The notes under the pieces: model-generated
The model's database searches: none
Told to the model about the DNA's origin: nothing
What the model saw: only the letters and a program-made list of their open reading frames with translations
Shown here: positions 1,217-40,153 of the stretch, one piece after another
Layout: each line of letters starts with the position of its first letter
Position numbering within the stretch: position 1 is the stretch's first letter
Source of the DNA: Dehalococcoidia bacterium
GTDB lineage: Bacteria > Chloroflexota > Dehalococcoidia > Lucifugimonadales > UBA3495
Assembly: GCA_012959605.1 (NCBI GenBank)
Contig: DUCU01000100.1
Coordinates: 7,147-71,146, forward strand
Direction: 5' to 3'
Length of the DNA stretch: 64,000 nt
Translations under genes and position numbers: made by a program

Positions 1217-2299
1217 ATGAAAGCAGCTGTGTTGCATGAAGTGAACCAACCTTTGCAGATGGAAGAAGTAGACGTCGCCCTGCCCGGTCCCAGAGAAGTT
1301 TTGGTGCGTACTCGTGCCTCTGGCGTTTGTCACAGCGATCTGCATTTTGTGGAGGGTCTCTACGCCACGGTCTTCCCGGTGGTGTTGGGACATGAAGCCG
1401 CCGGCACGGTGGAGGCGGTGGGTAGCCAGGTGGACTATGTATCTCCCGGCGACCGGGTAATCTGCTGCCTATCGGTCTTCTGCGGCCAATGCGAACGCTG
1501 CACCACTGGGCGCCCAGTACTTTGCTCTCGCACCGGATTGGTGCGTGGCCCGGATGAAACGCCACGACTGAGCCAAAGCGGCGCGCCTGTTACGCAGTTT
1601 GCCAACCTCGGTGCCTACGCCGAGATGATGCTGGTCCACGAGAATTCGTTGGTGAAGATTGAGCAAGACATCGGCTTTGAGCAGATGGCCCTGATCGGCT
1701 GCGGCGCTACCACTGGACTGGGAGCAGCCATGAACACCGCCAAGGTGGAGCCGGGCAGCACTGTAGCGGTCATTGGCTGCGGTGGAGTAGGGCTGAATGC
1801 CATTCAGGGAGCTAGACTAGCCGGTGCATTGCGCATAATCGCCATCGACGGTGTGGAAGACAAACTGACGCTGGCCCGCGATTTCGGGGCCACGGACGTG
1901 ATTGACGCCTCCAGCGGCGACGTTGAATCCCGGGTAAAAGACCTGACCAATGGCGGAGTGGACTACTCATTTGAGGCCATCGGCAAGAAAGAAACGGCAG
2001 AGCAGGCCTTTGGGATTCTACGAGCCGGCGGTACCGCAACCATCATTGGCATGATTCCCCAAGGCGTCAAGATTGAACTGGACGGCTCGGCTTTCTTACG
2101 GGAACGGCGCATCCAGGGCAGCAGTATGGGGTCGAACCATTTCCGGGTGGATATGCCCCGCTACGTAGATTTCTATCTGCAAGGTCGGCTCAAGCTGGAC
2201 GAACTGGTAACCCGCCGACTCAAGCTTGATGACGTGAACGATGCCTTCAAGTACATGAAAGAAGGATCGGTTGCCCGCAGCGTCATGATGTTCGACTAG
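1217..2299 (+). CDS. Zn-dependent alcohol dehydrogenase family protein
   Basis: Zinc-ADH signatures GVCHSDLH and GHEAAGTVEAVG, a structural-zinc Cys cluster (CGQCERC) and the Rossmann motif VIGCGGVGL. AAGGAG RBS at 1202..1207. Confidence 0.9.
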   Translation: MKAAVLHEVNQPLQMEEVDVALPGPREVLVRTRASGVCHSDLHFVEGLYATVFPVVLGHEAAGTVEAVGSQVDYVSPGDRVICCLSVFCGQCERCTTGRPVLCSRTGLVRGPDETPRLSQSGAPVTQFANLGAYAEMMLVHENSLVKIEQDIGFEQMALIGCGATTGLGAAMNTAKVEPGSTVAVIGCGGVGLNAIQGARLAGALRIIAIDGVEDKLTLARDFGATDVIDASSGDVESRVKDLTNGGVDYSFEAIGKKETAEQAFGILRAGGTATIIGMIPQGVKIELDGSAFLRERRIQGSSMGSNHFRVDMPRYVDFYLQGRLKLDELVTRRLKLDDVNDAFKYMKEGSVARSVMMFD

Positions 2300-2312: not shown

Positions 2313-2768
2313 TTAGCCTGTCAGGTCTGACCGGTTGGGCATGGTCATCATGGTCATGAGCATGGTGGCCACCAGCTTTTCTTCGCCGCCGTCGTAGGCT
2401 AATACGTCCCCCTTGCAGACGGTCACAGTGGCCCCGGGACGTACCACTTCACCGCGCGCCAAAAACCGATCTCCCTTGGCTGGAGCCAGAAAGTTAACCT
2501 TATACTCCACGGTCAGGACTGTAGTGTCTGCAGAGTTAAGACTAAAAGCGGCATACCCGCAGGCACTGTCTAGTATGCTCGTGATGATTCCGCCGTGAAC
2601 AAAGCCGTGCTGTTGAGTGAAATCTGCCCGGAAAGGCATCTCAATCTCCACGACGCCAGGCTCAATACCACCCAACGCCGCACCCAGGGTCTGCATGGCC
2701 GTCTGGCGGCTAAAGCTGTCGCGGACCTTGGCGATGAAGTCCGGGTCTCTGGGCTCAAATTTTGTCAA
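2313..2768 (-). CDS. PaaI family thioesterase (hotdog fold)
   Basis: 151 aa with a PaaI-like core (QQHGFVHGGIITSILDSACGYAA). Confidence 0.8.
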   Translation of the reverse strand: MTKFEPRDPDFIAKVRDSFSRQTAMQTLGAALGGIEPGVVEIEMPFRADFTQQHGFVHGGIITSILDSACGYAAFSLNSADTTVLTVEYKVNFLAPAKGDRFLARGEVVRPGATVTVCKGDVLAYDGGEEKLVATMLMTMMTMPNRSDLTG

Positions 2769-2813: not shown

Positions 2814-3710
2814 CTAGAATTTGAGGTCTGTTGCGTCTTTGAAGCGGCGCATGGCTTCTATATGCTCGCCGGCCGTGGTGAGCCCCCCCTGACGGTTTTC
2901 TATCGACAGATAACCAGCGCCCAGTTCCTGCCAGGCCTTGGCTTCATCCATCCAGTCTTCCGGCTGTTTGCCACTGACGCGTAGTCTGCCGTCCAGGACT
3001 AGCTTGCTGGGGTCGCGGCCCATTTCGCGCATATACCCGTGGACTTTTTCCACATAGCCTTTGCCGGTCTCGTCCGGATTGAAGTTGGGGCACCAGCCGT
3101 CAGCCAGCCTTGCCACCCGCTTTAGCACTGGTTCAGAGATGGTCGGAGTCGCCGAGCTACCAGCACCCAAGAAGATGGGTATGGGCCGCTGGACCGGCAG
3201 CGGATTTAGGCCGGCGTGGCTGATGTTGTGCCACTTGCCGTGGAAATCGACTACATCCTGTGTCCAGAGTGCGCGCATGACCTCGATTTGTTCGGCGCTG
3301 CGTGCACCGCGGTTATGGAAATTCTCGCCCAGAGCCTCGTACTCCACGGTATTCCAACCAACGCCAATGCCTAGCCGAAGCCGCCCTCCGGAGAGCACAT
3401 CAACCTCGGCCGCCTGCTTGGCCACCAACACCGTTTGGCGTTGCGGAAGGATCAGAATGCCGGTGGCCAGACCAACCCGCTCTGTGACCGCTGAGAGGTA
3501 ACCCATCAGCGTCATAATCTCGTGCACCACTGATTTATGGTTGTAAGTGCGTAGGGCAGGGAAATCGTGGTAGGCCGGGTCTGCGCCCAGCACGTGGTCA
3601 GCAATGAAGATGTAGGCGTAGCCCATGTCTTCTGCAGCTTGTGCAAAGTCCTTGATCGCTGACGGGTCTGGTTCAATCTCAGTCTGGGGGAAGATTACTC
3701 CAACTTCCAA
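2814..3710 (-). CDS. LLM class (luciferase-like) oxidoreductase, probably F420-dependent subgroup
   Basis: 298 aa with LLM-like blocks (FIADHV, LGIGVGWNTVEYEALG). The cofactor assignment is inference from length and subgroup resemblance. Confidence 0.75.
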   Translation of the reverse strand: MEVGVIFPQTEIEPDPSAIKDFAQAAEDMGYAYIFIADHVLGADPAYHDFPALRTYNHKSVVHEIMTLMGYLSAVTERVGLATGILILPQRQTVLVAKQAAEVDVLSGGRLRLGIGVGWNTVEYEALGENFHNRGARSAEQIEVMRALWTQDVVDFHGKWHNISHAGLNPLPVQRPIPIFLGAGSSATPTISEPVLKRVARLADGWCPNFNPDETGKGYVEKVHGYMREMGRDPSKLVLDGRLRVSGKQPEDWMDEAKAWQELGAGYLSIENRQGGLTTAGEHIEAMRRFKDATDLKF

Positions 3711-4089: not shown

Positions 4090-4977
4090 TTACTGGCGGA
4101 TGTATTTGACCAAGCGGTGGCCTTCCACGTTTTGATTCACATAGAGATCGCCATGGGAGTCCATCCACACAGCGTGCGCTCCATTGCCCATACCGGCATC
4201 CAAGGGGCTATCCCAGGTGGCGATGATATCGCCTTCGATGCTTAGGATGCTCATAAAGCCGTCTAATTCCGGCACGTAAATAATATCGTCCTGGTCGATG
4301 TAGATGTCACAGGGCCGGGCCAAGCCGCCCCATTCTTCCAGATATTTGCCGTCGGCATCAAATATTTGGATCCGGTTATTTTCACGGTCGGCCACAAACA
4401 CCCGGCCATCGGTGTGTACCCAGACTCCGTGGGGGACGTGGAACTCTCCGGGTCCGGTCTTGCCCGGCTCACCCCAGGAGAAGAGTAGCTTGCCATCGGC
4501 GGTGAACTTGTGGACACGCGCATTCCCATAGCCATCGGAGATGTACAGGTCTCCCGCCGAGTCCAGAGCAATGTCGCTGGGTCGGTTGAAGGGGCCCGCC
4601 GCCTGTTTGACTGGGTCGCTGACGTTGCCTGACCAGCCAGTGTCAGAAGGCTTATCCCAGTCACCCATGGTCATCAACAGATTGCCATCAGGCCGGTATT
4701 TCAAGACAACGTGGCTGTTTTTAACCGGCATATAAAGATTGTCATCGGCATCTATGAACATGCCGTGGGCGTCGGGCAATGCGCCTTCTCCCCAGGAATT
4801 CAAGAAATTGCCGTCACGATCAAAGACCATCAGGGGATGATCGCCCCGATTGAACAGATAGACCCGGTCTTGGGAGTCAGTGACGATGGCGGTCTGACCC
4901 AAAACCCAACCCTCCGGTAATTTCTCCCATGTCTCTAACTGCTCGTAAACTCGGACGCCTGCTCCTACTCGAACCAT
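4090..4977 (-). CDS. NHL-repeat beta-propeller protein (peptidyl-alpha-hydroxyglycine alpha-amidating lyase-like)
   Basis: Repeated NHL-type units (DSAGDLYISDGYGN, DGRVFVADRENNRIQIFD, DDIIYVPE, HGDLYVNQ). Confidence 0.7.
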   Translation of the reverse strand: MVRVGAGVRVYEQLETWEKLPEGWVLGQTAIVTDSQDRVYLFNRGDHPLMVFDRDGNFLNSWGEGALPDAHGMFIDADDNLYMPVKNSHVVLKYRPDGNLLMTMGDWDKPSDTGWSGNVSDPVKQAAGPFNRPSDIALDSAGDLYISDGYGNARVHKFTADGKLLFSWGEPGKTGPGEFHVPHGVWVHTDGRVFVADRENNRIQIFDADGKYLEEWGGLARPCDIYIDQDDIIYVPELDGFMSILSIEGDIIATWDSPLDAGMGNGAHAVWMDSHGDLYVNQNVEGHRLVKYIRQ

Positions 4978-5030
4978 TGAAATCTCCTATGTTTAATCGG
5001 GAGCAAACCTGCTCTCCGCATGTTTTAGTC

Positions 5031-5600
5031 TTATTCGCCGGTGGTCAGAGCTTCAATAATCTGAAGATGCAGTTCAGCCGACCGCTCGGAAACGGCCTCC
5101 GCGTTGATGCCGCCCAAGGGGTGCGGGATGCCCAGAGGCTGAAACCCTTGGCGTCCAAACACCTTGGCGTGGCGATAGGCCGAATTCAAAAACGGATCAG
5201 TACAGATGACTATAGTTGGCACACCCCGGTTCTCTAGGGCCATCGCGTCGTGCACACTGCACGCGGTGCAAGAGCCTCAATCCGCGATGCAGGTGACAAC
5301 AAAGTCGCACTTGGTAACCAGGTCATCAATGATGTCATCGGCGGCTGGCCGGGAATAGACGTACTTGTCGACTTCAAACCCATCCCTAAGCTCATAGTCC
5401 TTGTACATCAGTTCTTTGACACCTTGCAACAAGAGGCTGGCATTGGCCTTGCGGTTGCCGAGAAATCCGCCAACCTTGCCGTGGATGGAGTCCAAACGCG
5501 GGGCTGGGCTCCACCGAGAATTGGCATTCGGGTCAATTGGTGAGAGCAAGCCCAGCTCGTTTAGCCTGGCTTTTATGTCTGCTCTTGGTGCGCTAACCAT
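5031..5600 (-). CDS. UGSC-motif selenoprotein (in-frame UGA at 5277..5279 read as Sec), 189 aa
   Basis: ORFs 5277..5600 and 5031..5255 share one frame, and the 7 codons between them are open. Read-through gives FVVTCIAD-U-GSCTACSVHDAMALENRG. AAGGAG RBS (5606..5611) lies 5 nt before ATG 5600, and the downstream half has no RBS of its own. Confidence 0.75.
5246..5265 (-). other. candidate bacterial SECIS hairpin
   Basis: Minus-strand CGCGUGCA-GUG-UGCACG(A)CG forms 8 bp with one bulged A and a GUG apical loop. It starts 11 nt after the UGA. Confidence 0.4.
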
Positions 5601-5653
5601 AAATTCTCCTTGGAAGTGGGGTGTTATCCGGCGATTTCATATTCGTTCAGGAA

Positions 5654-6709: not shown

Positions 6710-6809
6710 AATTGCTTCGTGGGTACCCGGTACAGGATTGCTCGAAGTGTAATCTGGGGCTCAATCACTGTCAACGCGGGCACGGTTTGGCCAGCGGTCG
6801 AAGCTAAAA

Positions 6810-7151
6810 TTACGGGTGCGGTCCCCAGGGCGCTTCCAGCATCAATTTTACCTCTTGGGTCATAACCAAGGGCCGCAGTTTGCCCGCAAATGCCATGAAA
6901 GCATCGTCGGCAAACAACCTAGACCAGAAATCGCGCCGGTCAGCGTCGTCCTCAAATCGCCATAGGTGGACTAACTGGTTAATGGTTCCGACGTCGCTGG
7001 TGAAATAACCAACTAATTTAGAGTCGAAGCCTCCCTTCTGTAATGCAGGCCATCCAGCCTCGGAATAGTGTTTGATGGCTTCACCCATCTTGCCCACATA
7101 AAGCGTGTAGGTTCGCAGTTCAAATATTGCCATCGCCCCTCCAGTTTTCAC
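6810..7151 (-). CDS. NIPSNAP family protein
   Basis: 113 aa with a NIPSNAP-like pattern (IFELRTYTL ... INQLVHLWRFEDDADR). Confidence 0.8.
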   Translation of the reverse strand: MKTGGAMAIFELRTYTLYVGKMGEAIKHYSEAGWPALQKGGFDSKLVGYFTSDVGTINQLVHLWRFEDDADRRDFWSRLFADDAFMAFAGKLRPLVMTQEVKLMLEAPWGPHP

Positions 7152-8017: not shown

Positions 8018-9184
8018 TTATTTCCCTTTGAAGGCGGGCATGACCTCTTTGCCGAACCATTCAATCTGGTCGGTGATTACACTCTGAGGTGTGCCCATGG
8101 GATGGCTCATGCCGATCCTTTCCAGGGCCGGGTAAGCCTTCTCGACAGCCTTAATCTGCTCAATGATCCGGTCCGGAGGGCCAGCCAAGAATGCTTGTTT
8201 CTTAACAGCTTCCTGGATGGTGGGAAGACCGCCCGTCGGTGCCCGACGGGGATCGCCAATGATATCAATTTGCTCATCGGTCATGCCACGACTCAATCGC
8301 AGAGGACCAAACATTTTGAGGTTCTCTTCAAAGTAACCCTGGGCTTCTTTCATGGCCTGCTCCACGGTCGGCGCCATGTGGTAGTGGAAGCCAACGCTCA
8401 GACCTTCACCTAGCTGGGCATCCTTCTTTCCGGCGCGGACTAAAGCGTCCCGGTAGCCGGTCATGATGTCATCCATGACGCCGCCTTCAGCGACGCCGCC
8501 GCCAAGAACTCCCTTGATGCCGTGTTTAACCATGAAGTCCAGCGCCCTCTGCGTGCCGCCCTGGATGGGCTGCCAGCACTCAACGGGAAGAGTCGACGGG
8601 CGGGGCACCAAAGTCAGCTCCTTGAGGGTGTAGCCGCGATAGGGCACCTCAGGGGGCAGAGTGTAGTACTTTCCCTTATGGGAGAAGGACTCGTTGTTAA
8701 ACGCCTTGAAGATGATGTCTACCGCTTCTTCAAACTTCTCCCGGTTGGCAACCTGATCGGTGATGTCGGAACCAAATGTCTCGACCTCACGGGTGTGGTA
8801 GCCACGTCCAACGCCAAAGATTACCCGGCCTTTGGTCAAGATATCGGCGGTGGCAAAGTCCTCCGCCAAGCGCAGGGGGTGCCACATTGGGGCGATGTTG
8901 AAACCGCAGCCAAACTTTAAGTTTTTAGTCAGATGAGACAAGTGGACATTAAGCATAATCAGGTTAGGGATACATTCGTAGCCTTCTGGCTGAAAGTGGT
9001 GCTCCGCCATCCACATGGTGTCGAAACCGTTCTCGTCTAGGGCTTTGGCAATGGCCTCAGACTTGCTGTAAACGGTCATCAGGTGTTCGTTATCAAACTT
9101 CCGGTCGTTGACCGCCGTGCCGCCGTAGCCGATGTTGGTCATGTCTACGTGACCGGCAAATAGGCTGTCGAATTTTGTAATCAT
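8018..9184 (-). CDS. LLM class flavin-dependent oxidoreductase
   Basis: 388 aa with luciferase-like blocks (WMAEHHF, FGVGRGYHTREVETFG). Confidence 0.85.
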   Translation of the reverse strand: MITKFDSLFAGHVDMTNIGYGGTAVNDRKFDNEHLMTVYSKSEAIAKALDENGFDTMWMAEHHFQPEGYECIPNLIMLNVHLSHLTKNLKFGCGFNIAPMWHPLRLAEDFATADILTKGRVIFGVGRGYHTREVETFGSDITDQVANREKFEEAVDIIFKAFNNESFSHKGKYYTLPPEVPYRGYTLKELTLVPRPSTLPVECWQPIQGGTQRALDFMVKHGIKGVLGGGVAEGGVMDDIMTGYRDALVRAGKKDAQLGEGLSVGFHYHMAPTVEQAMKEAQGYFEENLKMFGPLRLSRGMTDEQIDIIGDPRRAPTGGLPTIQEAVKKQAFLAGPPDRIIEQIKAVEKAYPALERIGMSHPMGTPQSVITDQIEWFGKEVMPAFKGK

Positions 9185-10518: not shown

Positions 10519-11466
10519 TTAACGCCGACTGCGGGTCTGTCGAGGGTTTGTGCTGGGAGGGTCAATGACAATTTGACCTTCTTCAACCTGAATCTTAGCC
10601 AAACCGCCGCTGCGGAACCGATTGGCCAGTTCAATGGGGAGCTGAAGCCGCCCGGATTGGTCTACCACCACGTACTCATCTTCAACGGTGTCGCCGTCAT
10701 GCCGGTAATCCGGTCTGGTGAAGGTTTCCAAGCCGATGCGCCCGTCGCGGATGTGTACCACCCGGTCCACAAACTGGGAGACTCCCGCGTAATGGGTCAC
10801 AGTGACCACCGTTACCCCGTAGGCACGGTTCAACCCGCGGATCATTTCAAAGATACTGTCGGCGTTTTCCGTGTCCAACTCCCCGGTGGGCTCATCCGCC
10901 AGCAGCAGGGGCGGTTTGTTGGCCAGACCCACTGCAATTGCGGCCCGTTGCTGCTCCCCCCCGGATAACTCGTAGGGAAGCCGTTTGGCCTTATCGGCTA
11001 TGCCTAGAGACTCCAGTAATTCGCTGGACCAAGCACGGCGAGCCTTGGCTGGCTGGCCAGTTAGCGCCATAGGAAGTTCAATGTTATCGGCCACAGTTAA
11101 GTACGGCACCAGGTTCCTGGCGGTCGCCTGCCAGACAAAGCCAACTTCGGAGCGTCGGTACATAACCAGGTCGTTATCAGAGACGTCCAGCAAATCTCTA
11201 GAACCAACCATGACCTGGCCTGCAGAGGGACGGTCCAGGCCAGCCAGGATGTTCAGCAACGTGCTTTTACCACTGCCGCTAGCCCCGATAATCGCAATCA
11301 ACTCTCCGGGCTCGACGGTCAGGTCCAATCCGCGCAGGGCAACGACTTCCAGATCGGCGCGTTTGTAAATCTTGAACAGGTCATTGCAGTTGATATACGG
11401 ACCGTCATGCTGCACCGGGGCGGCATCACCGCTCTGATTGCTCAGATATTCACTCAATTGGGTCAT
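10519..11466 (-). CDS. ABC transporter ATP-binding protein (MacB/LolD type) with ~80-aa C-terminal tail
   Basis: Walker A GASGSGKST, LSGGEQQR, LLLADEPTGELD. Start placed at ATG 11466 (GGGAGA RBS) rather than TTG 11517. Confidence 0.88.
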   Translation of the reverse strand: MTQLSEYLSNQSGDAAPVQHDGPYINCNDLFKIYKRADLEVVALRGLDLTVEPGELIAIIGASGSGKSTLLNILAGLDRPSAGQVMVGSRDLLDVSDNDLVMYRRSEVGFVWQATARNLVPYLTVADNIELPMALTGQPAKARRAWSSELLESLGIADKAKRLPYELSGGEQQRAAIAVGLANKPPLLLADEPTGELDTENADSIFEMIRGLNRAYGVTVVTVTHYAGVSQFVDRVVHIRDGRIGLETFTRPDYRHDGDTVEDEYVVVDQSGRLQLPIELANRFRSGGLAKIQVEEGQIVIDPPSTNPRQTRSRR

Positions 11467-11533
11467 GCATTGTCTCCCATACCTAAAACCGGGATTGCCT
11501 CGGGTTTCACTAAGCAAGAAGTTTCTAGTCGCG

Positions 11534-14500
11534 TCATCCTGCGTCTCCCATTCTGAGAACCTGCTGCACCTGTATCTTGGCGCTCAACCAGGCCAGCCAA
11601 ATCACGGTCACCAATGTGACGCCCGCCAAGACTGAATAAGACACTAAAAGCGACAGCCAGTTGGTCGTAAGCGCCATGGGCGGTGTTACTCGTTCGCCTT
11701 CTTCAGCCAGTTCCATGAGCGGCAGCAGGGTTGCTCCAATCAGCTGGCCCACCCAGGTGCCCAAGGCCACGCCGCAGATGACGATTAAGAATAGATTAAA
11801 CCACACGATGCCCCGCATCTGACCGCCGGAGGAACCCAGCGTGCGGAGCAGGGCGAATTCCGTCTGACGTTCTTTTGTATCCAGGAACGAAAACAGCATC
11901 ACTCCAGAGCCAGTGGCCAGAGCTACGGCCAAGAACAACAGCACCAGCAACGCTCCCCAACCGGCGTTGACCAACGGCTGGTCAACCCGGGAGGCCACCA
12001 TCGCCTCTGCGTCATAAACGTCTCTGACGTTGACCCCAAGTTCTCGCATGAACTCGGTAATTTTATCGGCGTCGCCAATCGCCCTGGTATGATCAAAATC
12101 ATCTGGTATGTCTGCGGAGAAAGACTCCAGGTTCACCCAAATTTCATTGGCTCCAGCCGGGGGAACAGGGCTATGTTGGTTGGCCACAGCCTCAAAATTG
12201 TCCAAGTCCAACACCACAAATGGTTTGTCTCCGGGGTCCAACGTCGGAAAATAATCTACCACGCCTACAACGTTTATCCGAATTGCGTAGGTGGACAATC
12301 CCAGAATCACATCGTCACCAAGGGCAGCGTCGGCCAATTCCAAAAACTCTGTGCTAACCAACGCAGGTATTGGGGGTTCTGTAGGGCCGGGTCTCAGACC
12401 CCGTAGCCCAACGCCGCCGCTGGCCCAACTGAAGCGTGTCGATATTGGGAATTGTTCACCCCCTGCCGACCCGCTGGTCTCCAAGGCGTACAGGCCGGGC
12501 CGTGAGAAGTCCTGGACAACGGACCAGCCGTCAGACATCTCAAAATCGGTCAGCAGAACGGGTCCGCTGGTGGTAACCGCTTCCAACTCCCTTAAGAAAA
12601 TGGCGCCCAGGCCGTCAGACCCAAACCCACCAAGGCGATTGGTTATCTGAAACGCCTGTAGTGTGAATGGGCGTACAAGGGTGCTGCTGCGTGTGTCACT
12701 GGCTTGGCGCCGTCCGGCCGCAATCACCGGTGCAATGTCTGACTGAATCTTGTTCCAGCCTTCGTTTCCTAAAGTGCCCACCCAAGAATCAAAATACACA
12801 CCATTGGCATCGCGCAATCTCGCCCAGAGGTTTGCGCCGCCGTCGAGTCCAGTCGGCTGCACCCATACAGCCAGTCCAATCACGTCGTCTGGGAGCTCCA
12901 AGCCCTTGGGAGCCTCCGGTCCGTCCCCCAACAACTCAGCTAGGTCACTCATCGAATTACCATCAGCCAAGTCGTCTCTGAACCAGGCTACGTCTGCAAT
13001 CTTCGCCGAGTCCACCGCTAGAATCACGGTAGGGTCACTAAACCCTGTGGTGGTAATCTGCCCGTTAGAGCGGAATACATCAGTCGCGCTGATCACTGCT
13101 GGATTCTCCGCCACGTTTTCGGCAAACCTGCCGCCAGGCTTCACGCTGGATACGCCGGTATGCCGCACCCTCAAGTCGGCCCCCGCCGAATACAGGGCGC
13201 GTTCCTTTTGACTGCGCTCCAAAGTGGAACTAAAGGCGCTGCCAATTACGCCCAAAGCAGTGGACATGGTCAACAAGACAATCAAGATACCGGGAACCAT
13301 TGGATCGCGGGCTACGTGTCGCAGTGAATGCACCAACCACGATGGAGCAATCGGACCGGCCAGGCGTGACAACAGCAGCGCAAACCACGGGAATACCCGC
13401 ATCACCACCAACCCAACGGCCAGCAGTAACAGGGCCGGAATGAGCAGACCAACAAAATCCAGCTTCAACTCGGTGCTGTCTGGCGACTTAATCAGGAATG
13501 CGCCTCGGCTCCTGGCTTGGAACCAGATCAGTAGAATCAAGCCTAGGGCAACAACATCCAAGTAGTAGCGATGCAAGAATGACGCTGTTGGCGGGCGAGC
13601 GCCGGACTGTCTAGCTTCGATGATTCCGTGCCTGGCCGCCGCCACAGTGGCCAAAGTGAAAACTAGCACGGCCAATCCACCGCCGATCAAACCCAGTATC
13701 ATGGCACCCTGAGACACAACCACCGGAACACCGGAGATTTCATCAGCCCCGCCGCCCAGCCCAAAGAACACGTTGCCCAGCACCTTGACCACGAGCATTG
13801 CCAGGAACGGGCCGATGATCACGGCCGGAAGGCCCAGCAGCAGGCCCTCTCCCAGTCCTAGTATGCCAATCTGGATCGTAGTCGCGCCCCGGCTCTTGAG
13901 CATGGCAATCTCACTGGAGCGAGAGCGGATGATCAACCCAGCCACCAAGGCCAGATAATAGAGCAGAATCCCAGTGATGAGGAAAACCACCAAGAACAGC
14001 GGAACTCTGGCTAGGATTAATTGCTCGTCAAAGTCGCTTAGAAGTGTGTCCAACCGAATTGATGAGCTGGAATTCTTTAGCTCGAATGTGATGTCGTTTT
14101 CGACCCTCCAAAGGAGAGTTTGAAGGTCTCGAACGTCGTTGGCCCGCAAGTTTTCCCGGTCTAGGTAATAAAACCAAGTAACGTCGGTATAGAGGGCTGG
14201 ATAACGGCCAATCACCCGGTTGATTACAGCCTCTTCACTGGTGAACATGGGCACGATGGTCCAGCGGTCGTTCTTGAGACTAAAGTCGGCATAGACGCCG
14301 TACCAGAATTCGTCATCTGGATCGACTCGCTCAAAAACGCCCGATATGCGAACTGGCAGTCGCGGAGGGTCCGTGTAGGACGCGGCGGGGAAGATGCTCA
14401 CCACATCGCCCACTGCCATACCCAAAAGTCCTAGTCCTAGCCCGTCCACCACCACTTCCACTGGGGTGTCTTCAGATGCGGCCGCATTCTCTGCGCTTGG

Positions 14501-14968
14501 CCAACTCCCCTCGGTGAGCGTGACTCGATCAGTGCCGAAGCTAGACATGTGGACCACGGAGCCTCGGGGCCGGCTATCGTTGTCCACATCCATGCCCGGC
14601 TGTCCTTCAAAATAGAAGGTGGCCGTGTCTAATACCAACGCTTCTTCTTTCATGTATGGAGAAAGCACTGAGGAGACGCTTTCTTGGGCGAAATTCAGTC
14701 GGTCCTGGTACGCGGCGCGGCGTCCGGAGGTGGTCGACGGCTCATCCTGGCTGCTGAAAGACCTCATGGAAATGTTGGTCTCTTTAGGCGTGGCTTCTTG
14801 CAAAGCGTGGCGCAGCGATGCATTGGACAACAGGTCGGAAAAGATTACCCCGCTGGCCATCAACGCCACTGCTAATAAAATGCCGCCAAAGAGTACGGCC
14901 TCCAGTCGCCAACCAGTCACAGCTCGGCGTACTGCCATCACATAGGCGAACCTGATCATTGGCATCAT
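11534..14968 (-). CDS. giant double-FtsX (MacB/BceB-like) ABC permease, 1144 aa
   Basis: Two FtsX-type modules (SEIAMLKSRGAT and EFALLRTLGSSG linker motifs), about 10 predicted TM helices and two large extracytoplasmic domains. ATG overlaps the upstream stop (TAATG). Confidence 0.85.
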   Translation of the reverse strand: MMPMIRFAYVMAVRRAVTGWRLEAVLFGGILLAVALMASGVIFSDLLSNASLRHALQEATPKETNISMRSFSSQDEPSTTSGRRAAYQDRLNFAQESVSSVLSPYMKEEALVLDTATFYFEGQPGMDVDNDSRPRGSVVHMSSFGTDRVTLTEGSWPSAENAAASEDTPVEVVVDGLGLGLLGMAVGDVVSIFPAASYTDPPRLPVRISGVFERVDPDDEFWYGVYADFSLKNDRWTIVPMFTSEEAVINRVIGRYPALYTDVTWFYYLDRENLRANDVRDLQTLLWRVENDITFELKNSSSSIRLDTLLSDFDEQLILARVPLFLVVFLITGILLYYLALVAGLIIRSRSSEIAMLKSRGATTIQIGILGLGEGLLLGLPAVIIGPFLAMLVVKVLGNVFFGLGGGADEISGVPVVVSQGAMILGLIGGGLAVLVFTLATVAAARHGIIEARQSGARPPTASFLHRYYLDVVALGLILLIWFQARSRGAFLIKSPDSTELKLDFVGLLIPALLLLAVGLVVMRVFPWFALLLSRLAGPIAPSWLVHSLRHVARDPMVPGILIVLLTMSTALGVIGSAFSSTLERSQKERALYSAGADLRVRHTGVSSVKPGGRFAENVAENPAVISATDVFRSNGQITTTGFSDPTVILAVDSAKIADVAWFRDDLADGNSMSDLAELLGDGPEAPKGLELPDDVIGLAVWVQPTGLDGGANLWARLRDANGVYFDSWVGTLGNEGWNKIQSDIAPVIAAGRRQASDTRSSTLVRPFTLQAFQITNRLGGFGSDGLGAIFLRELEAVTTSGPVLLTDFEMSDGWSVVQDFSRPGLYALETSGSAGGEQFPISTRFSWASGGVGLRGLRPGPTEPPIPALVSTEFLELADAALGDDVILGLSTYAIRINVVGVVDYFPTLDPGDKPFVVLDLDNFEAVANQHSPVPPAGANEIWVNLESFSADIPDDFDHTRAIGDADKITEFMRELGVNVRDVYDAEAMVASRVDQPLVNAGWGALLVLLFLAVALATGSGVMLFSFLDTKERQTEFALLRTLGSSGGQMRGIVWFNLFLIVICGVALGTWVGQLIGATLLPLMELAEEGERVTPPMALTTNWLSLLVSYSVLAGVTLVTVIWLAWLSAKIQVQQVLRMGDAG

Positions 14969-17900
14969 TAGACGCCACCCCGCAGGACTTCAGAGGTGTT
15001 GAGTCGGCGAGCAGCCACCACGGCAAATCCCACTGAAAGCACAGCTCCAGCCATCAGTCCGGCCAACACGCCTGTCATCAGCCAGCCTTGCACGGAAGGC
15101 AACAGCGGTGGCACCGGGGCGTTCCCCTGGGGCGTTAGGTCAACCAATTCCAACACCAGCGACCCGGGCCAGTACCCCATGGCAGCGCCGGCGGCAATGG
15201 CTACTGCTGCGATAATCAGGCGCTCTGTGGCCAGTGACAGCAGAAATTGACGACGTGAGAAGCCCAAAACGCGCACCACTGCCAGGTCCATTCGCCCCGT
15301 TTTGACCGATACCAAGGCGTGGACGGTAAGTGTCAGCAGTACTGCGATGCCGATGGCCACCATGCTAAAGATGGTCAGCCCGTTCCAGCCGCCCCCGGCC
15401 AGGGGGTTTCGCTCGGCCAATCCCGCCACGACTTCAGCATCGCGCACGGAGACCAAACCGGGTATCACACTGGGTATATCGGCAATAACCTGCTCCCGGT
15501 CTGCTTCAGGGTCCAGCGCCAACCACATCTCAGCTGGCTCGTCCAGGGTGCTGAACGGGAGTCGGCGAACATACTCGCGGTAGTCGGCCAGGTCCACAAT
15601 CGCAAACGGTTTGCGGTCTGGTTTTAGACTTGGGAAGTGGCTGGTGATGCCCACAAATTGAATCGGCACTGCCAAGTATCCCAGTTTGAGTCGTATGTGC
15701 TGCCCTCGAACAAAATCGGGCCCGCCGATGGCCGGTAAGGGAAATGGTCCTGGCGGAAGGTGGATGCCCCGCTGTCCGGTAGAGATTGGCTTCTGCCAAG
15801 AAAAACTCATGCCTGACCCACCGCTGCGGGCGCTGGATCGAGACGATTCAGCGATATCCGGGATTTCATCCTGATTAACCAACGGCACCCAAGGTGTATC
15901 GCCTTCAAATCCTTCGATTACAACACCCGATGGCACCACCCCAACTGGCACCGTGTCAGCAGATGTACCAAAAGCCGTTACATCATCCAAGTGGATGACC
16001 CCGTGGGACAATCTGTTGGCCGGAGAGGTTGAGATGAAGATTGAGACCAATTCCAGCGGCAACGAGACTGAAGCGTATGCACGAATGTCTCCCGTGAACA
16101 GCCGCCAGCGTCCGTCAACCGCTTTCACATCGGCAATCTCAGCGACAGATGAACCGGGGCTGTCCGTCTCCATGATGTCGCCTAGGTCAATGTTGCGATA
16201 GATGCCGGTAGCCGTCATGATCCTGGCCCACAAGTTGACACCCGACCTTAGGTCAAGTTCCAGCAGAGCATTACTGTCCACCCAAATCCCCAGGGATCGG
16301 CTATCTTCTGGCAGTGGGATGCCGGTGCCAGCGAGACTGGCCGGGAACGGCCTGGGCCTGAGTAGTCGGCTGATTTCTTGCAGACCGCCCTCAAAGAAAT
16401 CGTCCCGGAACCAACCGGTCTTAGCCAAGGCTGGCGGATCAACGGCCAGCAGCTCCATAGTTTCGCCGCGCGGGCCGTCTAGAGGCGTGACCGAATCTCG
16501 GAATACTGGGCTCACTGCTGTGACGCCGGGCACTCTCGCCAGTTTTTCTGGAGCGTCTATCCGCAGGGCTGGTCCACTCAACACCATATTCCCGCCCACG
16601 CTGTACCGTGCCTGATCGCTCTGAGCTTGGGACAAGCTGGACTGAAATGTGGCTCCAAACACTCCCAAAGCCGCCGCTAGCATCAATATCACCGCCAACG
16701 AGCCGTGGGGGATGGGGTCTCTGGCCAGGCGCACCAGCGAGAACTGGAACCAGGCAGGGCCGATGCGAGTGCCCAACCAGGCCAACAACCGGACGATTAG
16801 CGGAATTATCCGCAAGAGCAGCACGCCAGCGGCAAATAAACCCAACACCGGGCCCAGGACCAAAGTCGGGTCAACATTTATCCCTTGGGAGGACAGTTCC
16901 TCGGTGACAAATCCGTCGCGACCGCGCACCTGGAACCAGATGATGGCCACGATTACCACCGCCAATATGTCCAGATAATACTGGTGCAGGAAGGGCACGG
17001 ACGGAGGTCTGGCCCTCGATTTCAACGACTCGAGGGTGCCCACCCTGGCCCGCCCCGTTGCCGTAATCAGTAGCACCGACAGCGCTAACACGCCCCCCAA
17101 GGCACCCATCCAGAACATGTCTCCGGCCAAGCCCAAGGGAATCGGAGCCGTTATGTCGCCACCGGGATTTATCGTGTCCAGCAGCAGTGTCTTGACGATG
17201 GCCCAGGCCAAGAACGGCCCAATGACCATCGCGATAACAACCACCACTCCCTCGGCCAACGCCAGCACACCGGTCACCTGCGCCACGCTGGCGCCACGAC
17301 TACGCAGCAGGCCAGCTTCTTCTGCTTGGCTGCGACCCAGAGTCCCGGTGATGAGTGCCAAGAAGTACAACACAACCACCACAACCAAAGATAGGTACAG
17401 GTAAAGCGGAATTCTGGCCAGCGTTAGGGCCTTGTCGAACTCTTCTATCGTCAGACCCAGGCGGCTCAGGACTAATGTGCGTGGGTAAACCTTGTTAACG
17501 TCGGTCTCCAAGCCAAGTATCTGGTCCTTAACATGAGTCGCATTGCCAGCGGTAAGAAATTCTGAATCCAAGAATAGGTAGAAGCCAAAATCGCCCACCA
17601 ATGTCGGGTAACGCTCGCCGATGCCTTGGAAATAGTCATCTTCGGTAACGAATAGAGGGACAATCACCGACTCGCCAACCGGCCGCAGGTCAAAATAAAT
17701 CGGTGCACCCATCCAATATTCTTCACGATGATCTATCGGATTAGCCAGACCTACCACTTTGAAGATGATCCGCTCCGGCGAGCCTCTGCGGGGAATCAGA
17801 TATATCCGGTCGCCAACGTCATATCCCATTTGGCGGGCCGCTTCCCGTCCCAGAACCGTTTCGATATCGCCCTGCTTATTTGGGTCTCGTAATGCGCCGG

Positions 17901-18345
17901 GGTCGGGCCAACGTCCTTCGACCAGCTCCGTATGCTCTTCGAAGCCAGTGAGGAAGAAAGGTCGGCCTCCGGGAGAGCCCAGAATCGGCGCGGCGGGTGA
18001 ATCGAGCAGGATTAGATTGGCCTGGGTGCGTCCAAACCGCTCGGTTTTCAGCAGCAAATCACCCAGTCGATCATCGGCTACTCCATCTACCAACTGCTCC
18101 AGTTTTTGGTAGTCACCCAGGCCTAGGGGCCGATTTTGCGCAATAACCTGTACATCGTGAACCTCGGCCCTGTGGGAGGATATTGAGTGTCGTAGGCCCG
18201 CTTCACCAAGGGCGCGGGAGTACAAGGCCCCGGTGGCCATGATTGTGACCGACGCCAAGATGCCAAAAGATGTTACCGCCAACAATAACCAGGACTGACG
18301 CAGTCGGCGGCACAATAGCCAGGAGACTAGGGACAGCAGCGGCAT
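14968..18345 (-). CDS. giant double-FtsX (MacB/BceB-like) ABC permease, 1125 aa
   Basis: Paralogous architecture to 11534..14968 (EEAGLLRSRGAS and DLAVVRVLGFSR linker motifs), with two large extracytoplasmic domains. Confidence 0.85.
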   Translation of the reverse strand: MPLLSLVSWLLCRRLRQSWLLLAVTSFGILASVTIMATGALYSRALGEAGLRHSISSHRAEVHDVQVIAQNRPLGLGDYQKLEQLVDGVADDRLGDLLLKTERFGRTQANLILLDSPAAPILGSPGGRPFFLTGFEEHTELVEGRWPDPGALRDPNKQGDIETVLGREAARQMGYDVGDRIYLIPRRGSPERIIFKVVGLANPIDHREEYWMGAPIYFDLRPVGESVIVPLFVTEDDYFQGIGERYPTLVGDFGFYLFLDSEFLTAGNATHVKDQILGLETDVNKVYPRTLVLSRLGLTIEEFDKALTLARIPLYLYLSLVVVVVLYFLALITGTLGRSQAEEAGLLRSRGASVAQVTGVLALAEGVVVVIAMVIGPFLAWAIVKTLLLDTINPGGDITAPIPLGLAGDMFWMGALGGVLALSVLLITATGRARVGTLESLKSRARPPSVPFLHQYYLDILAVVIVAIIWFQVRGRDGFVTEELSSQGINVDPTLVLGPVLGLFAAGVLLLRIIPLIVRLLAWLGTRIGPAWFQFSLVRLARDPIPHGSLAVILMLAAALGVFGATFQSSLSQAQSDQARYSVGGNMVLSGPALRIDAPEKLARVPGVTAVSPVFRDSVTPLDGPRGETMELLAVDPPALAKTGWFRDDFFEGGLQEISRLLRPRPFPASLAGTGIPLPEDSRSLGIWVDSNALLELDLRSGVNLWARIMTATGIYRNIDLGDIMETDSPGSSVAEIADVKAVDGRWRLFTGDIRAYASVSLPLELVSIFISTSPANRLSHGVIHLDDVTAFGTSADTVPVGVVPSGVVIEGFEGDTPWVPLVNQDEIPDIAESSRSSARSGGSGMSFSWQKPISTGQRGIHLPPGPFPLPAIGGPDFVRGQHIRLKLGYLAVPIQFVGITSHFPSLKPDRKPFAIVDLADYREYVRRLPFSTLDEPAEMWLALDPEADREQVIADIPSVIPGLVSVRDAEVVAGLAERNPLAGGGWNGLTIFSMVAIGIAVLLTLTVHALVSVKTGRMDLAVVRVLGFSRRQFLLSLATERLIIAAVAIAAGAAMGYWPGSLVLELVDLTPQGNAPVPPLLPSVQGWLMTGVLAGLMAGAVLSVGFAVVAARRLNTSEVLRGGV

Positions 18346-24873: not shown

Positions 24874-25953
24874 TCACCCCTCGCGGATTAGCCGTGCGGC
24901 CTCGTCGCCCATCTCAGAGGTAGAGGCGGTGCCGCCCAGGTCTACGGTCAAGATAGTGCGTTGCTCCAGGCATTTGGCCACAGCCTTGTCCACACGCTCG
25001 GCGGCTGCTGTGTCGCCGAAGTGATCAAGCATCATGGCCACGGCGGAGACGGTTGCCAACGGATTGGCGATTCCCTTGCCCATGATATCGAACGCTGCGC
25101 CGTGAACCGGCTCGAATAAGGACGGGAATTCATGATCGGGGTTGATGTTGGCGCTGGGTGCCAGACCCATGCTGCCAGTCACAACTGCTGCGATGTCTGA
25201 CAGAATATCGGCGAATAGGTTGGACGCCACCATAACGTCAAAGTCCTCAGGCCAGCGGACCAAATCCATACAGGCCCGGTCAACCAACAGCGATTCAGTC
25301 TCGATATGCGGGAAATCGGCTGCCACTTCGGTGAAGACCTCATCCCAGAAGACCATGCCAAACGACTGGGCATTGGACTTGGTGACTGAGGTTACTTTCT
25401 TGCCCTTGGCCTTGTTGCGCCGGTCGCAGTACTCAAACGCCGCCCGGATGATGCGCTCGGTGCCTCGGCGGGTAAACATGTTGGTCTGGACCACTGTTTC
25501 ATGAGCTGTGCCCGCATAAAGGCGTCCACCCACGGGAGCGTACTCGCCCTCGGTGTTCTCCCTAAAGATGACCATGTCGATGTCGCCAGCCTTTTTGCCG
25601 ACCAAGGGCGATTCCACGCCTGGATGAAGATAGGCGGGGCGGATACAAACTCCCTGGTCAAAGCTGCGACGCATGGGCAACAACAGGCCATGCAGGGTGA
25701 TGTGGTCGGGGATGTTGGGGTCACCAACCGCGCCGAACAAGATAGTGTCAAAGGCTTTCAATGTCTCGATGCCATCTACAGGCATGAGATTGCCGGTTTC
25801 GCGGTAGTATTCCGAGCCCCAGGGGAACTCGGTGAACTGAAAGCTGAGTCCGTCGGTCACGCTAGCCACAGCCTCGAGGGCTTTTCTGCCTTCGGCGATG
25901 ACCTCTAGCCCCACGCCATCGCCGGGAATCACTGCTATCTTGTATTCGGCCAT
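24874..25953 (-). CDS. isocitrate/isopropylmalate dehydrogenase family enzyme, tartrate/D-malate dehydrogenase-like
   Basis: IAVIPGDGVG, RENTEGEY, VTKSNA and a 359-aa length. Subgroup assignment is by resemblance only. Confidence 0.75.
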   Translation of the reverse strand: MAEYKIAVIPGDGVGLEVIAEGRKALEAVASVTDGLSFQFTEFPWGSEYYRETGNLMPVDGIETLKAFDTILFGAVGDPNIPDHITLHGLLLPMRRSFDQGVCIRPAYLHPGVESPLVGKKAGDIDMVIFRENTEGEYAPVGGRLYAGTAHETVVQTNMFTRRGTERIIRAAFEYCDRRNKAKGKKVTSVTKSNAQSFGMVFWDEVFTEVAADFPHIETESLLVDRACMDLVRWPEDFDVMVASNLFADILSDIAAVVTGSMGLAPSANINPDHEFPSLFEPVHGAAFDIMGKGIANPLATVSAVAMMLDHFGDTAAAERVDKAVAKCLEQRTILTVDLGGTASTSEMGDEAARLIREG

Positions 25954-29770: not shown

Positions 29771-29837
29771 GATGCACTTGAAAGTACACAGATACTTCTA
29801 TCTAATGTCTCTAGGATGTTTCACATACTACATGTAG

Positions 29838-29857
29838 ATGAGACTAACTAGTCTCAT
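29838..29857. promoter_or_regulatory. perfect 9-bp inverted repeat, candidate operator
   Basis: ATGAGACTA-AC-TAGTCTCAT in the divergent intergenic region between the cob run and the zinc-ribbon gene. Confidence 0.3.
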
Positions 29858-29893
29858 TAGTTGCCATAATTTAAGAAATTGGCATACTATATG

Positions 29894-29922
29894 TTGACAT
29901 GTCTTAAAATCCAAGCTAGAAT
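29894..29922 (+). promoter_or_regulatory. near-consensus sigma70-type promoter
   Basis: TTGACA (29894..29899), 17-nt spacer, TAGAAT (29917..29922). It lies about 30 nt upstream of the zinc-ribbon ATG. Confidence 0.5.
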
Positions 29923-29953
29923 ATCGAGACCGTAACGATGGGAGGTGTTTCTT

Positions 29954-30094
29954 ATGGAAGCATACTGTGTGAAGTGTCGAAGCAAGCGCGAGATCAAGAA
30001 CCCCGAAAAGATCACTATGAAAAACGGGAAGCCCGCCACTCAGGGTACATGCCCGTCATGTGGCACCAAGGTTTTTCGTATCGGAGCCGCTTAA
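29954..30094 (+). CDS. 46-aa zinc-ribbon protein (DUF5679-like)
   Basis: MEAYCVKCRSKREIKNPEKITMKNGKPATQGTCPSCGTKVFRIGAA with CxxC...CxxC. GGGAGGTG RBS lies 6 nt upstream. Absent from the ORF track because it is shorter than 60 aa. Confidence 0.7.
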   Translation: MEAYCVKCRSKREIKNPEKITMKNGKPATQGTCPSCGTKVFRIGAA

Positions 30095-30437
30095 CAGCGG
30101 TCTTCGACTTTTCTTCTTCGCTGATAACGGGCAGTCAGGCGGCGATTTAGTTGTTTCGAGCTGATAGTCGGCTTTCGTCCCACCGTCAGAAACTGGCCTG
30201 TGGCAGTCACCCGAAGTGTTGTGTAGTGATGTGTGTAAAGGGTGGCTGCTTACAGCTTGGTTAATTTTGTTTGAATTTTCCCTCTAGCCCTGAATATAAA
30301 CGGGTTTATTTAAACTTGTTCCATTTCAAAAGATACTGATTTGGGCACAGAGTAACGGAAAAAGCAAGATATCTGGTCGTCTTACCTATAGGTTTTATTC
30401 CTGTGCATTTTCGCGCGGGATTGGCAAACATGGCTTC

Positions 30438-30474
30438 GTGGCCGAGGGTCCCTCCTCTTCGGCCACTTTTTTTG
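30438..30474 (+). terminator. intrinsic terminator inside a long non-coding region
   Basis: GTGGCCGA-N13-TCGGCCAC stem followed by TTTTTTT. Confidence 0.7.
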
Positions 30475-30716
30475 TGCCGTTCCCTAGGTATTGCCAACTC
30501 CATTTTCCCACCCTCTAGGGTTTAACTGCCCGTCCATTTAATCGTCTCAGCCAAGTTATTTTCGACCTCAATCCTATGCTCTGTGCTATTATGGCGGCGC
30601 ACACCAACCATAGGGTTTTCAAGCGTGTTTTATCCCGTGCCAGCCATGACTTATCAGCCAGTAGGCTAGAGGCTGAAACGGAGCTAATATTCGAGTAAAA
30701 ACTTCGGAGGTTCATC

Positions 30717-39304: not shown

Positions 39305-39406
39305 ACTCGATCCATAGTAAATATCATCGCCGCCCGGTGTGGGCCTTGGGTGAAGTTGATTCACTCTTGGCCCATGCCGGGCGGCTAGTACTCTCCCCCG
39401 CCGTAA

Positions 39407-39603
39407 AAGTTGATTCCATTGGCTCAGAAATCTGTGCTGTCAGCCGACCGCATAAAATACGAGGATCAGATAGCTGCATTCTTCCTAGAAGAGGTCTTCG
39501 GACAGACCGGACTGTATGCAGTGGACAATGTGTGGCCTGTCGGTCCGAACATCAAACCATGGGGCGATTTCGTGAAGCAAGGCGACCTAAGGCAAGTCAA
39601 TAA
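39407..39603 (+). pseudogene. 3'-terminal remnant of a further family-5 SBP paralog
   Basis: Encodes IPLAQKSVLSADRIKYEDQIAAFFLEEVFGQTGLYAVDNVWPVGPNIKPWGDFVKQGDLRQVN, which matches the last ~65 residues of the intact SBPs. Nothing upstream of it matches. Confidence 0.75.
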
Positions 39604-39635
39604 GTCCATCAACAGGACTGCAGCAACTAATAAAA

Positions 39636-39670
39636 AGAGGACCAACCTTCGGGTTGGTCCTCTTTTTATT
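39636..39670 (+). terminator. intrinsic terminator (paralogous to 37019 and 42046)
   Basis: AGAGGACCAACC-TTCG-GGTTGGTCCTCT followed by TTTTAT. Confidence 0.65.
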
Positions 39671-39898
39671 TTCCATTCAATCTGCCAGACCGTAATAAGG
39701 GTGGTTCGTATTGCGATAACCGGTAAGAGAGGCGTAAGCGAACTTAGAAGATAACCGCTGTTTGTCGGTATCGAACTACGGATTCAGATGCAAACTAATG
39801 CGCCGATCCTCCCTAATCCGAATATTTCCTCTTTCCAATTGGTTTTTTAATACTAGACAAACAGAATAATTATACGATTTGATATCAAATATATGCCA

Positions 39899-39927
39899 TT
39901 GACATGCTTACTACGTTAGTCTATACC
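39899..39927 (+). promoter_or_regulatory. copy C of the repeated SBP promoter module
   Basis: TTGACA-17-TATACC inside ATTGACAT-N10-TTAGTCTATACCT. Confidence 0.4.
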
Positions 39928-40153
39928 TATTCCCTATTATCGTTAATCCGGTAATTTACATATTCTGCCTGCGCTATAATCTAAGGAAAGAAGATAAACC
40001 GGACAATCATTACCTTGGTAATTAGGTTCCGGACTTCACTGTCGGCTTAACAATTCCCTACGAGTGTCAAAATACTCTTCGAGTTTTAAAGCTAACTAGC
40101 CGTAAAGCGCGAAGGATATCGTATAGTCATACTTTATTGGAGGTTTGTCCGTC

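Follow-up and report, generated by a model that had tools for sequence, protein, structure and literature searches.

Two short open reading frames of a Dehalococcoidia bacterium form one probable UGSC-family selenoprotein gene beside a conserved partner gene

The UGSC family of selenoproteins has been known since the metagenome surveys of the Sargasso Sea and the Global Ocean Sampling (GOS). It is the 'UGSC-containing protein' of Zhang and Gladyshev (2008), for which 255 forms with selenocysteine (Sec, U) and 21 forms with cysteine (Cys) were found in 37 GOS samples and a thioredoxin-like fold was proposed (PMC2398784). Reviews of 2022 and 2026 list the family (NF041046) among those with largely uncharacterised functions. 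A similar motif, UxxCxxC, is documented for GrdB/F/H (PMC6778437, PMC13188914). Metagenome-assembled genomes (MAGs) of Dehalococcoidia rank among the most selenoprotein-rich bacteria in BSepDB (PMC13326102). Here we describe a UGSC-family gene in 64,000 nt of contig DUCU01000100.1 from a marine Dehalococcoidia bacterium of SAR202 type; this whole stretch is called the window, and positions are given within it. An earlier reading of the letters alone, referred to as the original prediction, had proposed that two open reading frames (ORFs) of the window are one selenoprotein gene, belonging to a family without established function, and on the latter point the reviews agree. Since the family is already known, the gene is a new member and not a discovery, and its novelty is modest.

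Translation of the minus strand from 5600 to 5031 gave 107 amino acids, a TGA (5279..5277), another 81 amino acids and a TAA (5033..5031). Around the TGA the frame reads ...CDFVVTCIAD-TGA-GSCTACSVHDAMALENRGVPTIVICTDPF.... The two pieces appear separately in the ORF list, as 5277..5600 and 5031..5255, and the seven codons that lead from the TGA to GTG 5255 (GGC TCT TGC ACC GCG TGC AGT) are open. The original prediction had described this arrangement as a single frame interrupted by one TGA, and every detail of it was accurate. It had also placed a strong ribosome-binding site (RBS) before ATG 5600 alone; AAGGAG was indeed found at 5611..5606, and inspection of the sequence before GTG 5255 revealed no purine-rich or RBS-like motif.

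Relatives were collected by a scan of one genome per GTDB species. The 41 loci obtained come from MAGs of Dehalococcoidia, SAR202 and Chloroflexota and match the read-through product over its full length, with 59-95% identity; together with the window they make up a set of 42 sequences, here called the SAR202-clade set. All 42 carry TGA at the Sec column, never TAA or TAG, while the true terminal stops of the same sequences vary between TAA, TAG and TGA. In this frame no sequence has a stop in the 77 codons after the TGA, compared with averages of 3.2 and 0.8 stops in the other two. The ratio of nonsynonymous to synonymous variation (pN/pS) is 0.27 downstream and 0.28 upstream of the TGA. The D-U-G-S-C motif is present in the window and in 41 of 41 relatives, and the homologues are collinear across the junction, with the TGA kept in all 41 genomes. 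Complete chromosomes with the gene include OZ253486.1, OZ252223.1, OY763072.1, OZ240206.1 and OZ240214.1.

The 107-aa N-terminal ORF was also used to search 1.84 billion cluster representatives, and the best 150 (50% clustering) were examined. Nine are of full length (179-215 aa), and most of the others end at the residue aligned to 107. In all nine full-length homologues a Cys stands at the U column (consensus IGD-C-GSC-TSC). Cys is likewise aligned to the UGA in the Cys forms from Halorientalis, Variovorax, Roseovarius, Arthrobacter and Natrinema. The best 120 matches in a database of 5.8 billion proteins are fragments of ~107 aa that end at the TGA point, as foreseen by the suggestion that ordinary gene callers split or truncate this gene: in public records the close relatives appear as 'hypothetical proteins' cut off at 107 aa. 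Finally, 80 metagenome loci were picked by the partner gene described below alone (38-91% identity to the window partner; 35 of them are long loci). Of the 70 that carry both genes, 63 have TGA at the key codon and four have a Cys codon. These results confirm that the two short ORFs are a single gene, in which the UGA at codon 108 is recoded and not terminating.

Membership of the UGSC family was tested with the read-through product, U being written as C. NCBIfam NF041046, 'UGSC family (seleno)protein', matched with 126.8 bits, a thin margin over its cutoff of 125, across profile positions 6-147 of 147. Pfam PF24696, 'UGSC', matched residues 19-186 with 150.2 bits (cutoff 25, E = 8e-44), covering profile positions 3-171 of 172 and spanning the UGA. 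The family named in the original prediction is thus the right one. The protein shares with the family the expected length, the motif and the alternation of Sec and Cys at one column, and the Sec form predominates in marine settings as in the GOS data. No essential difference was seen; the SAR202/Dehalococcoidia host and the N-terminal ~40 residues are specific to the lineage. We conclude that the gene almost certainly encodes a genuine Sec-containing member of the family. The second Cys of the motif (C111), three residues past U, is nearly invariant. The third is C in the window protein (U-GS-C-TA-C) and varies across the family between C, G, W and A. The conserved motif is therefore UxxC and not UxxCxxC. 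The original prediction had likened a UxxCxxC arrangement to that of GrdB. The motif is present in this protein and documented for GrdB/F/H; the third Cys is not conserved family-wide.

The Sec insertion sequence (SECIS) of E. coli fdhF is a hairpin within the coding sequence, with a G-U-initiated loop ~18 nt after the UGA. A comparable hairpin lies directly 3′ of the UGA in the window gene (Table 1). Its apical loop starts ~19-20 nt after the UGA; with a possible lower stem the structure would span 5233..5273. The hairpin appears both in the minimum free energy (MFE) fold of the window sequence and in the RNAalifold consensus. It shares with the fdhF element the place in the coding sequence, the G-U loop start ~18-20 nt on and an upper stem ...UGCA/UGCA.... 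The fdhF loop is GGUC and here it is a 3-nt GUN; the fdhF bulge is a U and in the SAR202 version it is an A. Searches of Rfam found no SECIS family, either in the whole window at gathering thresholds or in 5000..5650 at permissive E-values, where only noise was reported (mir-67, leuA).

Comparison among the relatives showed that this RNA is constrained. In the SAR202-clade set synonymous codon heterozygosity is 0.06 at codons +3..+10 after the TGA and 0.475 elsewhere (p = 2.4e-6), and these codons are the minimum of the whole gene. The loop reads GUN in 97 of 98 distinct Sec-form sequences; for pair 21:27 the counts are 74 C-G and 20 G-C, and for pair 19:29 they are 80 U-A and 13 G-U. Covariation was scored in 69 diverse Sec forms against 500 shuffles and slid registers. 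Paired cells amounted to 85.8%, compared with 74.6% in shuffles (reached in 0/500), and at most 48.6% were paired in slid registers. Cells changed on both sides numbered 48 against 13.7 expected (0/500). Compensatory changes occurred in seven of nine pairs, and the covariation score was 0.279 versus 0.106 when shuffled (0/500) and no more than 0.111 in slid controls. The hairpin is found at the same offset in Sec forms of Candidatus Tectimicrobiota, of three other metagenomic clades and of Paracoccus. In contrast, seven Cys forms make just 2-6 of the 8 scored pairs, and the MFE folds of three Cys forms contain no equivalent hairpin. Changes at some covarying positions replace Cys by Trp or Gly, or His by Leu or Arg, so the RNA structure is kept at a cost to the protein. 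The family consensus can be written G(U/C)G(C/G)A-GUN-U(G/C)C(A/G)C, in which the loop lies 19-20 nt past the UGA. From these sequence comparisons, the hairpin is a predicted SECIS element of bacterial type under selection of its own, and SelB would be expected to bind it.

A second gene, here called the partner, ends 53 nt upstream of the UGSC start. Pfam and NCBIfam (at E<=1) and PDB sequence searches returned no match for it, nor for any of 23 members of its family, and PDB sequence and profile searches with either protein of the pair gave nothing meaningful. The partner family has at least 7993 matches; among the 120 best listed, every name given by the source is 'hypothetical protein'. 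The partner adjoins the UGSC gene, upstream of it, in 40 of the 41 genome loci, and in the exception the UGSC gene lies ~335 bp from the contig end. In the metagenome sample a UGSC gene stands beside the partner on the same strand in 70 of 80 loci, and most of the others are cut by contig ends. The order is partner-UGSC in 42 metagenome loci and UGSC-partner in 26. The module occurs in marine SAR202, Tectimicrobiota, Paracoccus, Roseovarius, Variovorax and Arthrobacter, and as Cys forms in haloarchaea.

Two loci encode both proteins as one polypeptide. In one metagenome locus the partner is followed by a Pro/Ala-rich linker and a UGSC domain with its Sec TGA. In Vibrio europaeus a 561-aa fusion has a UGSC-like domain first and the partner second, with the redox motif decayed to M-G-T-S-V. 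A fusion domain of UGSC proteins called 'Unknown_1' in 2008 may correspond to the partner. The Vibrio gene (L139, 5323..7008, plasmid pVEu) is flanked by genes for aconitase X, DUF126 and enolase, and looks like a redox-dead variant of the module among hydro-lyases. A 457-aa ORF (P0341) that seemed to be another partner-UGSC fusion was rejected as a frameshift artefact, its C-terminal third being out-of-frame sequence. A 457-aa ORF cluster and large 'antisense' clusters were artefacts of greedy ORF calling in GC-rich contigs, and hidden Markov model and tblastn tests were used instead. The module is thus kept in different phyla, whichever gene comes first, and in two independent cases its proteins are fused into one chain. 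The variable order and the two independent fusions argue for a physical complex, and the UGSC protein probably forms one with its partner. Taken together, the identity of the gene and its membership of a two-gene module with the partner are very likely correct.

Table 1. Positions of the features discussed (window coordinates)
Feature	Position	Strand	Details and evidence
UGSC-family selenoprotein gene	5031..5600	minus	189 codons; ATG 5600; Sec codon 108; stop TAA 5033..5031
In-frame TGA read as Sec (U108), motif D-U-G-S-C	5277..5279	minus	TGA conservation; Cys in homologues
Shine-Dalgarno sequence AAGGAG	5606..5611	minus	spacer of 5 nt (AATTT) to ATG 5600; read from sequence
Predicted core SECIS hairpin CGCGUGCA-GUG-UGCACGaCG	5246..5265	minus	MFE fold; synonymous suppression; RNAalifold consensus; covariation
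Conserved partner gene, ~347 aa	5654..6697	minus	ATG 6697 (mechanical ORF starts at TTG 6709)
Promoter-like TTGACA-17-TACACT upstream of partner	6746..6774	minus	consensus scan 10/12; pattern match only
NHL-repeat beta-propeller gene	4090..4977	minus	PF01436 NHL, E = 3e-17; 53 nt downstream of UGSC

The structure of the UGSC protein was predicted with AlphaFold2 (predicted local distance difference test, pLDDT, 85; predicted template modelling score, pTM, 0.80). The model is a flavodoxin-like three-layer alpha/beta sandwich in which U108 lies two residues before a predicted helix, 110-124. Its best PDB matches are lumazine synthases, flavodoxin-like domains and azoreductases, with template modelling (TM) scores of ~0.4-0.5, and no thioredoxin-fold protein was found among the top 50 structure matches. 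This contradicts the thioredoxin-like guess of 2008. The protein resembles thioredoxin-fold selenoproteins (Prx-, Trx-, Grx- and SelW-like) in having a UxxC/CxxU-type motif near a helix start, and differs from them in its predicted fold. The partner was modelled with a pTM of 0.83. It has two invariant Cys residues (C74 and C172) and several invariant His and Glu residues. Its highly conserved loops, residues 98-105 and 158-168, are low-confidence parts of the model, as active-site lids often are.

Among the closest described systems are the selenoprotein B subunits of glycine/sarcosine/betaine reductase (GrdB/F/H) and of D-proline reductase (PrdB). Four GrdB/PrdB-family models weakly match residues 87-174, including U, with E-values from 9e-5 to 8e-3; Pfam GRDB (PF07355) was not reported for the UGSC product at E<=0.01. 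The systems share a Sec residue in U-x-x-C(-x-x-C), weak local similarity around it, a second, non-seleno subunit encoded next door and, in some operons, genes of the thioredoxin system. They differ in size, as the UGSC protein has 189 aa compared with ~240 for PrdB and ~435 for GrdB. In addition, there are no grdA/C/D or prdC genes, and the third Cys is unconserved. The hosts of GrdB/PrdB are Stickland fermenters, while those of UGSC proteins include marine and soil heterotrophs.

Thioredoxin genes accompany the module in several bacteria. In Arthrobacter the order is trxB-trxA-partner-UGSC, and trxA shares 4 nt with the partner gene; in Roseovarius it is partner-UGSC-trxB. The Variovorax cluster contains trxB and genes for a tripartite tricarboxylate transporter (TTT) binding protein and a short-chain dehydrogenase/reductase, followed by the partner and UGSC. 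Another locus encodes the partner, UGSC, a coenzyme A (CoA)-transferase, TrxB (TIGR01292, 363.6 bits; cutoff 343.45) and a thioredoxin homologue (TIGR01068, 90.0 bits, slightly below the cutoff of 96.8). CaiB-type CoA-transferases, acyl-CoA ligases, enoyl-CoA hydratase and CoA ester lyase are encoded near the module in some clades, and binding proteins of the TTT and tripartite ATP-independent periplasmic (TRAP) types and LysR regulators also recur.

We therefore considered the following mechanism, which goes beyond gene identity. SelB carrying Sec-tRNA(Sec) would bind the hairpin and insert Sec. U108 and C111 would form a selenol/thiol redox pair in a flavodoxin-like domain, cycling through a selenenylsulfide. 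In a heteromeric enzyme of the two proteins, UGSC would supply the redox subunit and the partner the substrate site. NADPH, thioredoxin reductase and thioredoxin would then reduce the oxidised U-x-x-C again, in parallel to the Sec subunits GrdB and PrdB of the glycine and D-proline reductases. The substrate would probably be an imported organic acid, possibly as its CoA thioester, and this is the least secure step. A thioredoxin-driven reductase is the function that we infer, tentatively and at somewhat less than an even chance; a CoA-linked substrate is doubtful. The complete proposal, that UGSC and its partner constitute a widespread, undescribed two-subunit (seleno)enzyme whose redox subunit is a distant relative of the GrdB/PrdB Sec domain, is recycled by thioredoxin and reduces an imported organic acid or acyl-CoA, has in our estimate a probability of roughly 0.35.

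A number of observations weigh against the explanation given here, from the Sec codon to the mechanism. The scores with the GrdB/PrdB models TIGR01917, TIGR01918 and TIGR04483 are far below their cutoffs (21.5 versus 602.2 bits, 17.5 versus 65.45 and 15.6 versus 300). The partner shows no similarity to the pyruvoyl proproteins GrdE and PrdA, and its sole fold matches are class I fumarate hydratases (Foldseek probability 0.96), with a TM-score of only ~0.28. The Vibrio fusion lacks U/C-x-x-C, which implies that some family members work without redox chemistry. One Cys form lacks a partner in its vicinity and adjoins a PreA-like flavoprotein. In the unbiased metagenome sample TrxB was found in 3 of the 35 long loci and CoA-related genes in 8 of 80, and in the window neither trxB nor a CoA-related gene is directly beside UGSC. 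The CoA association was strong in the first five contexts and reached only that level in the unbiased sample; it and the trxB association are therefore taken as clade-specific hints. Neither the 64-kb window nor the 41 related loci yielded genes for selA, selB, selD or tRNA-Sec. The window hairpin alone is not more stable than shuffled sequences (z = +0.8), which is why comparative evidence was relied on, and its conservation is partly confounded with that of the amino acids. Biochemical data do not exist for any UGSC member (PMC13188914).

An alternative is that the two proteins are a non-redox enzyme pair, such as a hydro-lyase or isomerase, in which U or C acts as a nucleophile, an acid-base group or a ligand of a metal or cofactor. 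The fumarate hydratase matches of the partner, low as their TM-score is, point in this direction, and so do its invariant Cys, His and Glu residues, the Vibrio fusion without the Cys motif beside aconitase X, DUF126 and enolase, and a LarE sulfur transferase encoded nearby in one clade. However, several bacteria have dedicated trxB/trxA genes inside the operon, Sec is preferred over Cys (63 versus 4) in the way typical of redox catalysis, and C111 is nearly invariant three residues after U. We consider a non-redox pair unlikely.

Less probable still is a stand-alone thiol/selenol oxidoreductase, a thioredoxin-like antioxidant as guessed from the GOS data, to which the partner would be merely syntenic. 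The UxxC motif, the fold suggested in 2008 (PMC2398784) and the Cys form without a partner are in keeping with it. The predicted fold is flavodoxin-like instead, and an adjacency that outlasts inversion of the gene order across phyla and is twice sealed by fusion would be unexpected for passive synteny.

Two other explanations concern the codon itself. Readthrough of the UGA as another residue, through a reassigned code (Trp or Gly) or near-cognate insertion of Cys or Trp, is very improbable. TGA is the ordinary stop of many well-supported window genes with full-length domain coverage, for instance the isocitrate/isopropylmalate dehydrogenase gene (24874..25953), whose Pfam coverage is complete; this excludes a reassigned code, and the code is standard. 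In addition, the covarying hairpin at SECIS distance is specific to TGA forms, the homologous residue is Cys, and Dehalococcoidia are documented as selenoprotein-rich. That the TGA is a true stop, leaving a 107-aa protein and a decaying or separately translated fragment (a split gene or pseudogene), is effectively refuted: gene callers give exactly such a split, the best 120 database matches are ~107-aa fragments and the window hairpin alone is not significant, but the codon is TGA, never TAA or TAG, in 41 of 41 species and TGA in 63 of 70 metagenome modules, the downstream 81 codons are under equal purifying selection and have neither an RBS nor a conserved start, and the family domain spans the junction with Cys replacing U in full-length homologues.

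Individual loci of the proposed two-subunit enzyme show further variation. In Paracoccus ferrooxidans (L136, plasmid pFER4; 6399..8056 and 11371..13146) a Sec-form module lies 3.3 kb from selB, which lends indirect support to Sec use. Its UGSC gene, annotated as two hypothetical proteins, immediately precedes the partner, and the genes for DsrE, TusA and a cysteine desulfurase stand just ahead. P. versutus has a Sec-form module as well, and in both species it is found on a megaplasmid together with selB. An AIRS/AIRS_C gene near the module of another locus (L052) was considered as SelD and dropped, because the match was weak and HypE-like. The Cys form mentioned above without a partner (L045, 3630..5564) comes immediately after a PreA-like dihydropyrimidine/dihydroorotate dehydrogenase with ferredoxin domains, so that UGSC domains may have a role with other redox enzymes too. 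On a plasmid of the haloarchaeon Halorientalis litorea (L134, 5358..8020) two partner paralogues, 46% and 42% identical to the window partner, flank a Cys-form UGSC gene in a cluster that also encodes a luciferase-like monooxygenase (LLM) family oxidoreductase, a CoA transferase and a CoA ester lyase. DUF6282 adjoins the module in both Halorientalis and Natrinema. The Cys-form protein of Arthrobacter sp. ERGS1:01 (L138, 7015..7830) has 271 aa, with a C-terminal extension of ~95 aa that carries a C-S-D-C motif. In L048 (1471..2552) two CoA-transferases, an enoyl-CoA hydratase and the module stand downstream of genes for a LarE-type ATP-dependent sacrificial sulfur transferase (TIGR00268, 343 bits) and a small protein of the YHS/PP0621 family. 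The genes of L050 (1344..2419) are arranged in the same way, with a gene for 274 aa in the corresponding place. The LarE-type gene may hint at a sulfur- or metal-containing cofactor.

Within the window, the promoter-like site upstream of the partner may be the start of the operon, judging by its pattern. The NHL-repeat gene is a third gene specific to the SAR202 clade; it was found downstream of UGSC in 33 of the 41 SAR202-clade loci and in 1 of the 80 metagenome loci. A 7-bp hairpin (4999..5016) in the 53 nt that separate the UGSC stop from the NHL start is terminator-like on the plus strand only; no T-run follows it on the coding strand. Two paralogous LLM flavin monooxygenase genes (2814..3710 and 8018..9184, both minus) flank the module, and a NIPSNAP protein (6810..7151), a PaaI-like hotdog thioesterase (2313..2768) and a zinc alcohol dehydrogenase (1217..2299) are encoded near it. 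SAR202 bacteria have been described as having an expanded oxidative catabolic repertoire, which this neighbourhood resembles.

Other parts of the window contain several unusual regions. At 10519..18345 (minus) an ABC ATPase gene is followed by two tandem genes for proteins of 1144 and 1125 aa that match the FtsX permease domain only at their C-termini, which suggests a MacB-like exporter with giant extracytoplasmic domains. The cluster at 37466..47132 (plus) encodes an ABC transporter of oligopeptide type, with two family-5 solute-binding proteins in tandem (612 and 608 aa), two ATPases and a permease whose gene (44050..45090) is confirmed; ORF 43115..44032 lies between these genes. Two regions of ~900 nt each, 29771..30716 and 50275..51156, lack ORFs of >=90 aa on both strands and gave no Rfam match at the gathering threshold. 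The TGA-bridged frame in the first looks non-coding. More generally, examination of TGA-bridged frames found no second selenoprotein gene in the window: frames 29828..30283 and 57060..57518, and extensions of TGA-terminated genes, look non-coding.

The practical value of this work is a correction of annotation, because public records of the relatives are cut at the Sec codon. The family-specific SECIS consensus could improve the automatic calling of UGSC genes, and the published guess of a thioredoxin-like fold is corrected by the predicted flavodoxin-like one. To what was known of the family we add a nearly always adjacent partner without family assignment, two natural fusions and recurring trxB/trxA genes in the operon. 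Cultured, genetically tractable hosts are available, namely Paracoccus for the Sec form and Arthrobacter (sp. ERGS1:01), Roseovarius (sp. THAF8) and Variovorax for Cys forms with a dedicated thioredoxin system. With these the function of UGSC proteins becomes directly testable. If the proposed two-subunit enzyme is real, it would assign a function to a selenoprotein family that is among the most abundant in the sea and to the partner family, which comprises about 8000 or more protein clusters and is without a Pfam model, and selenium chemistry in the style of Grd and Prd would reach well beyond the anaerobic Stickland fermenters.

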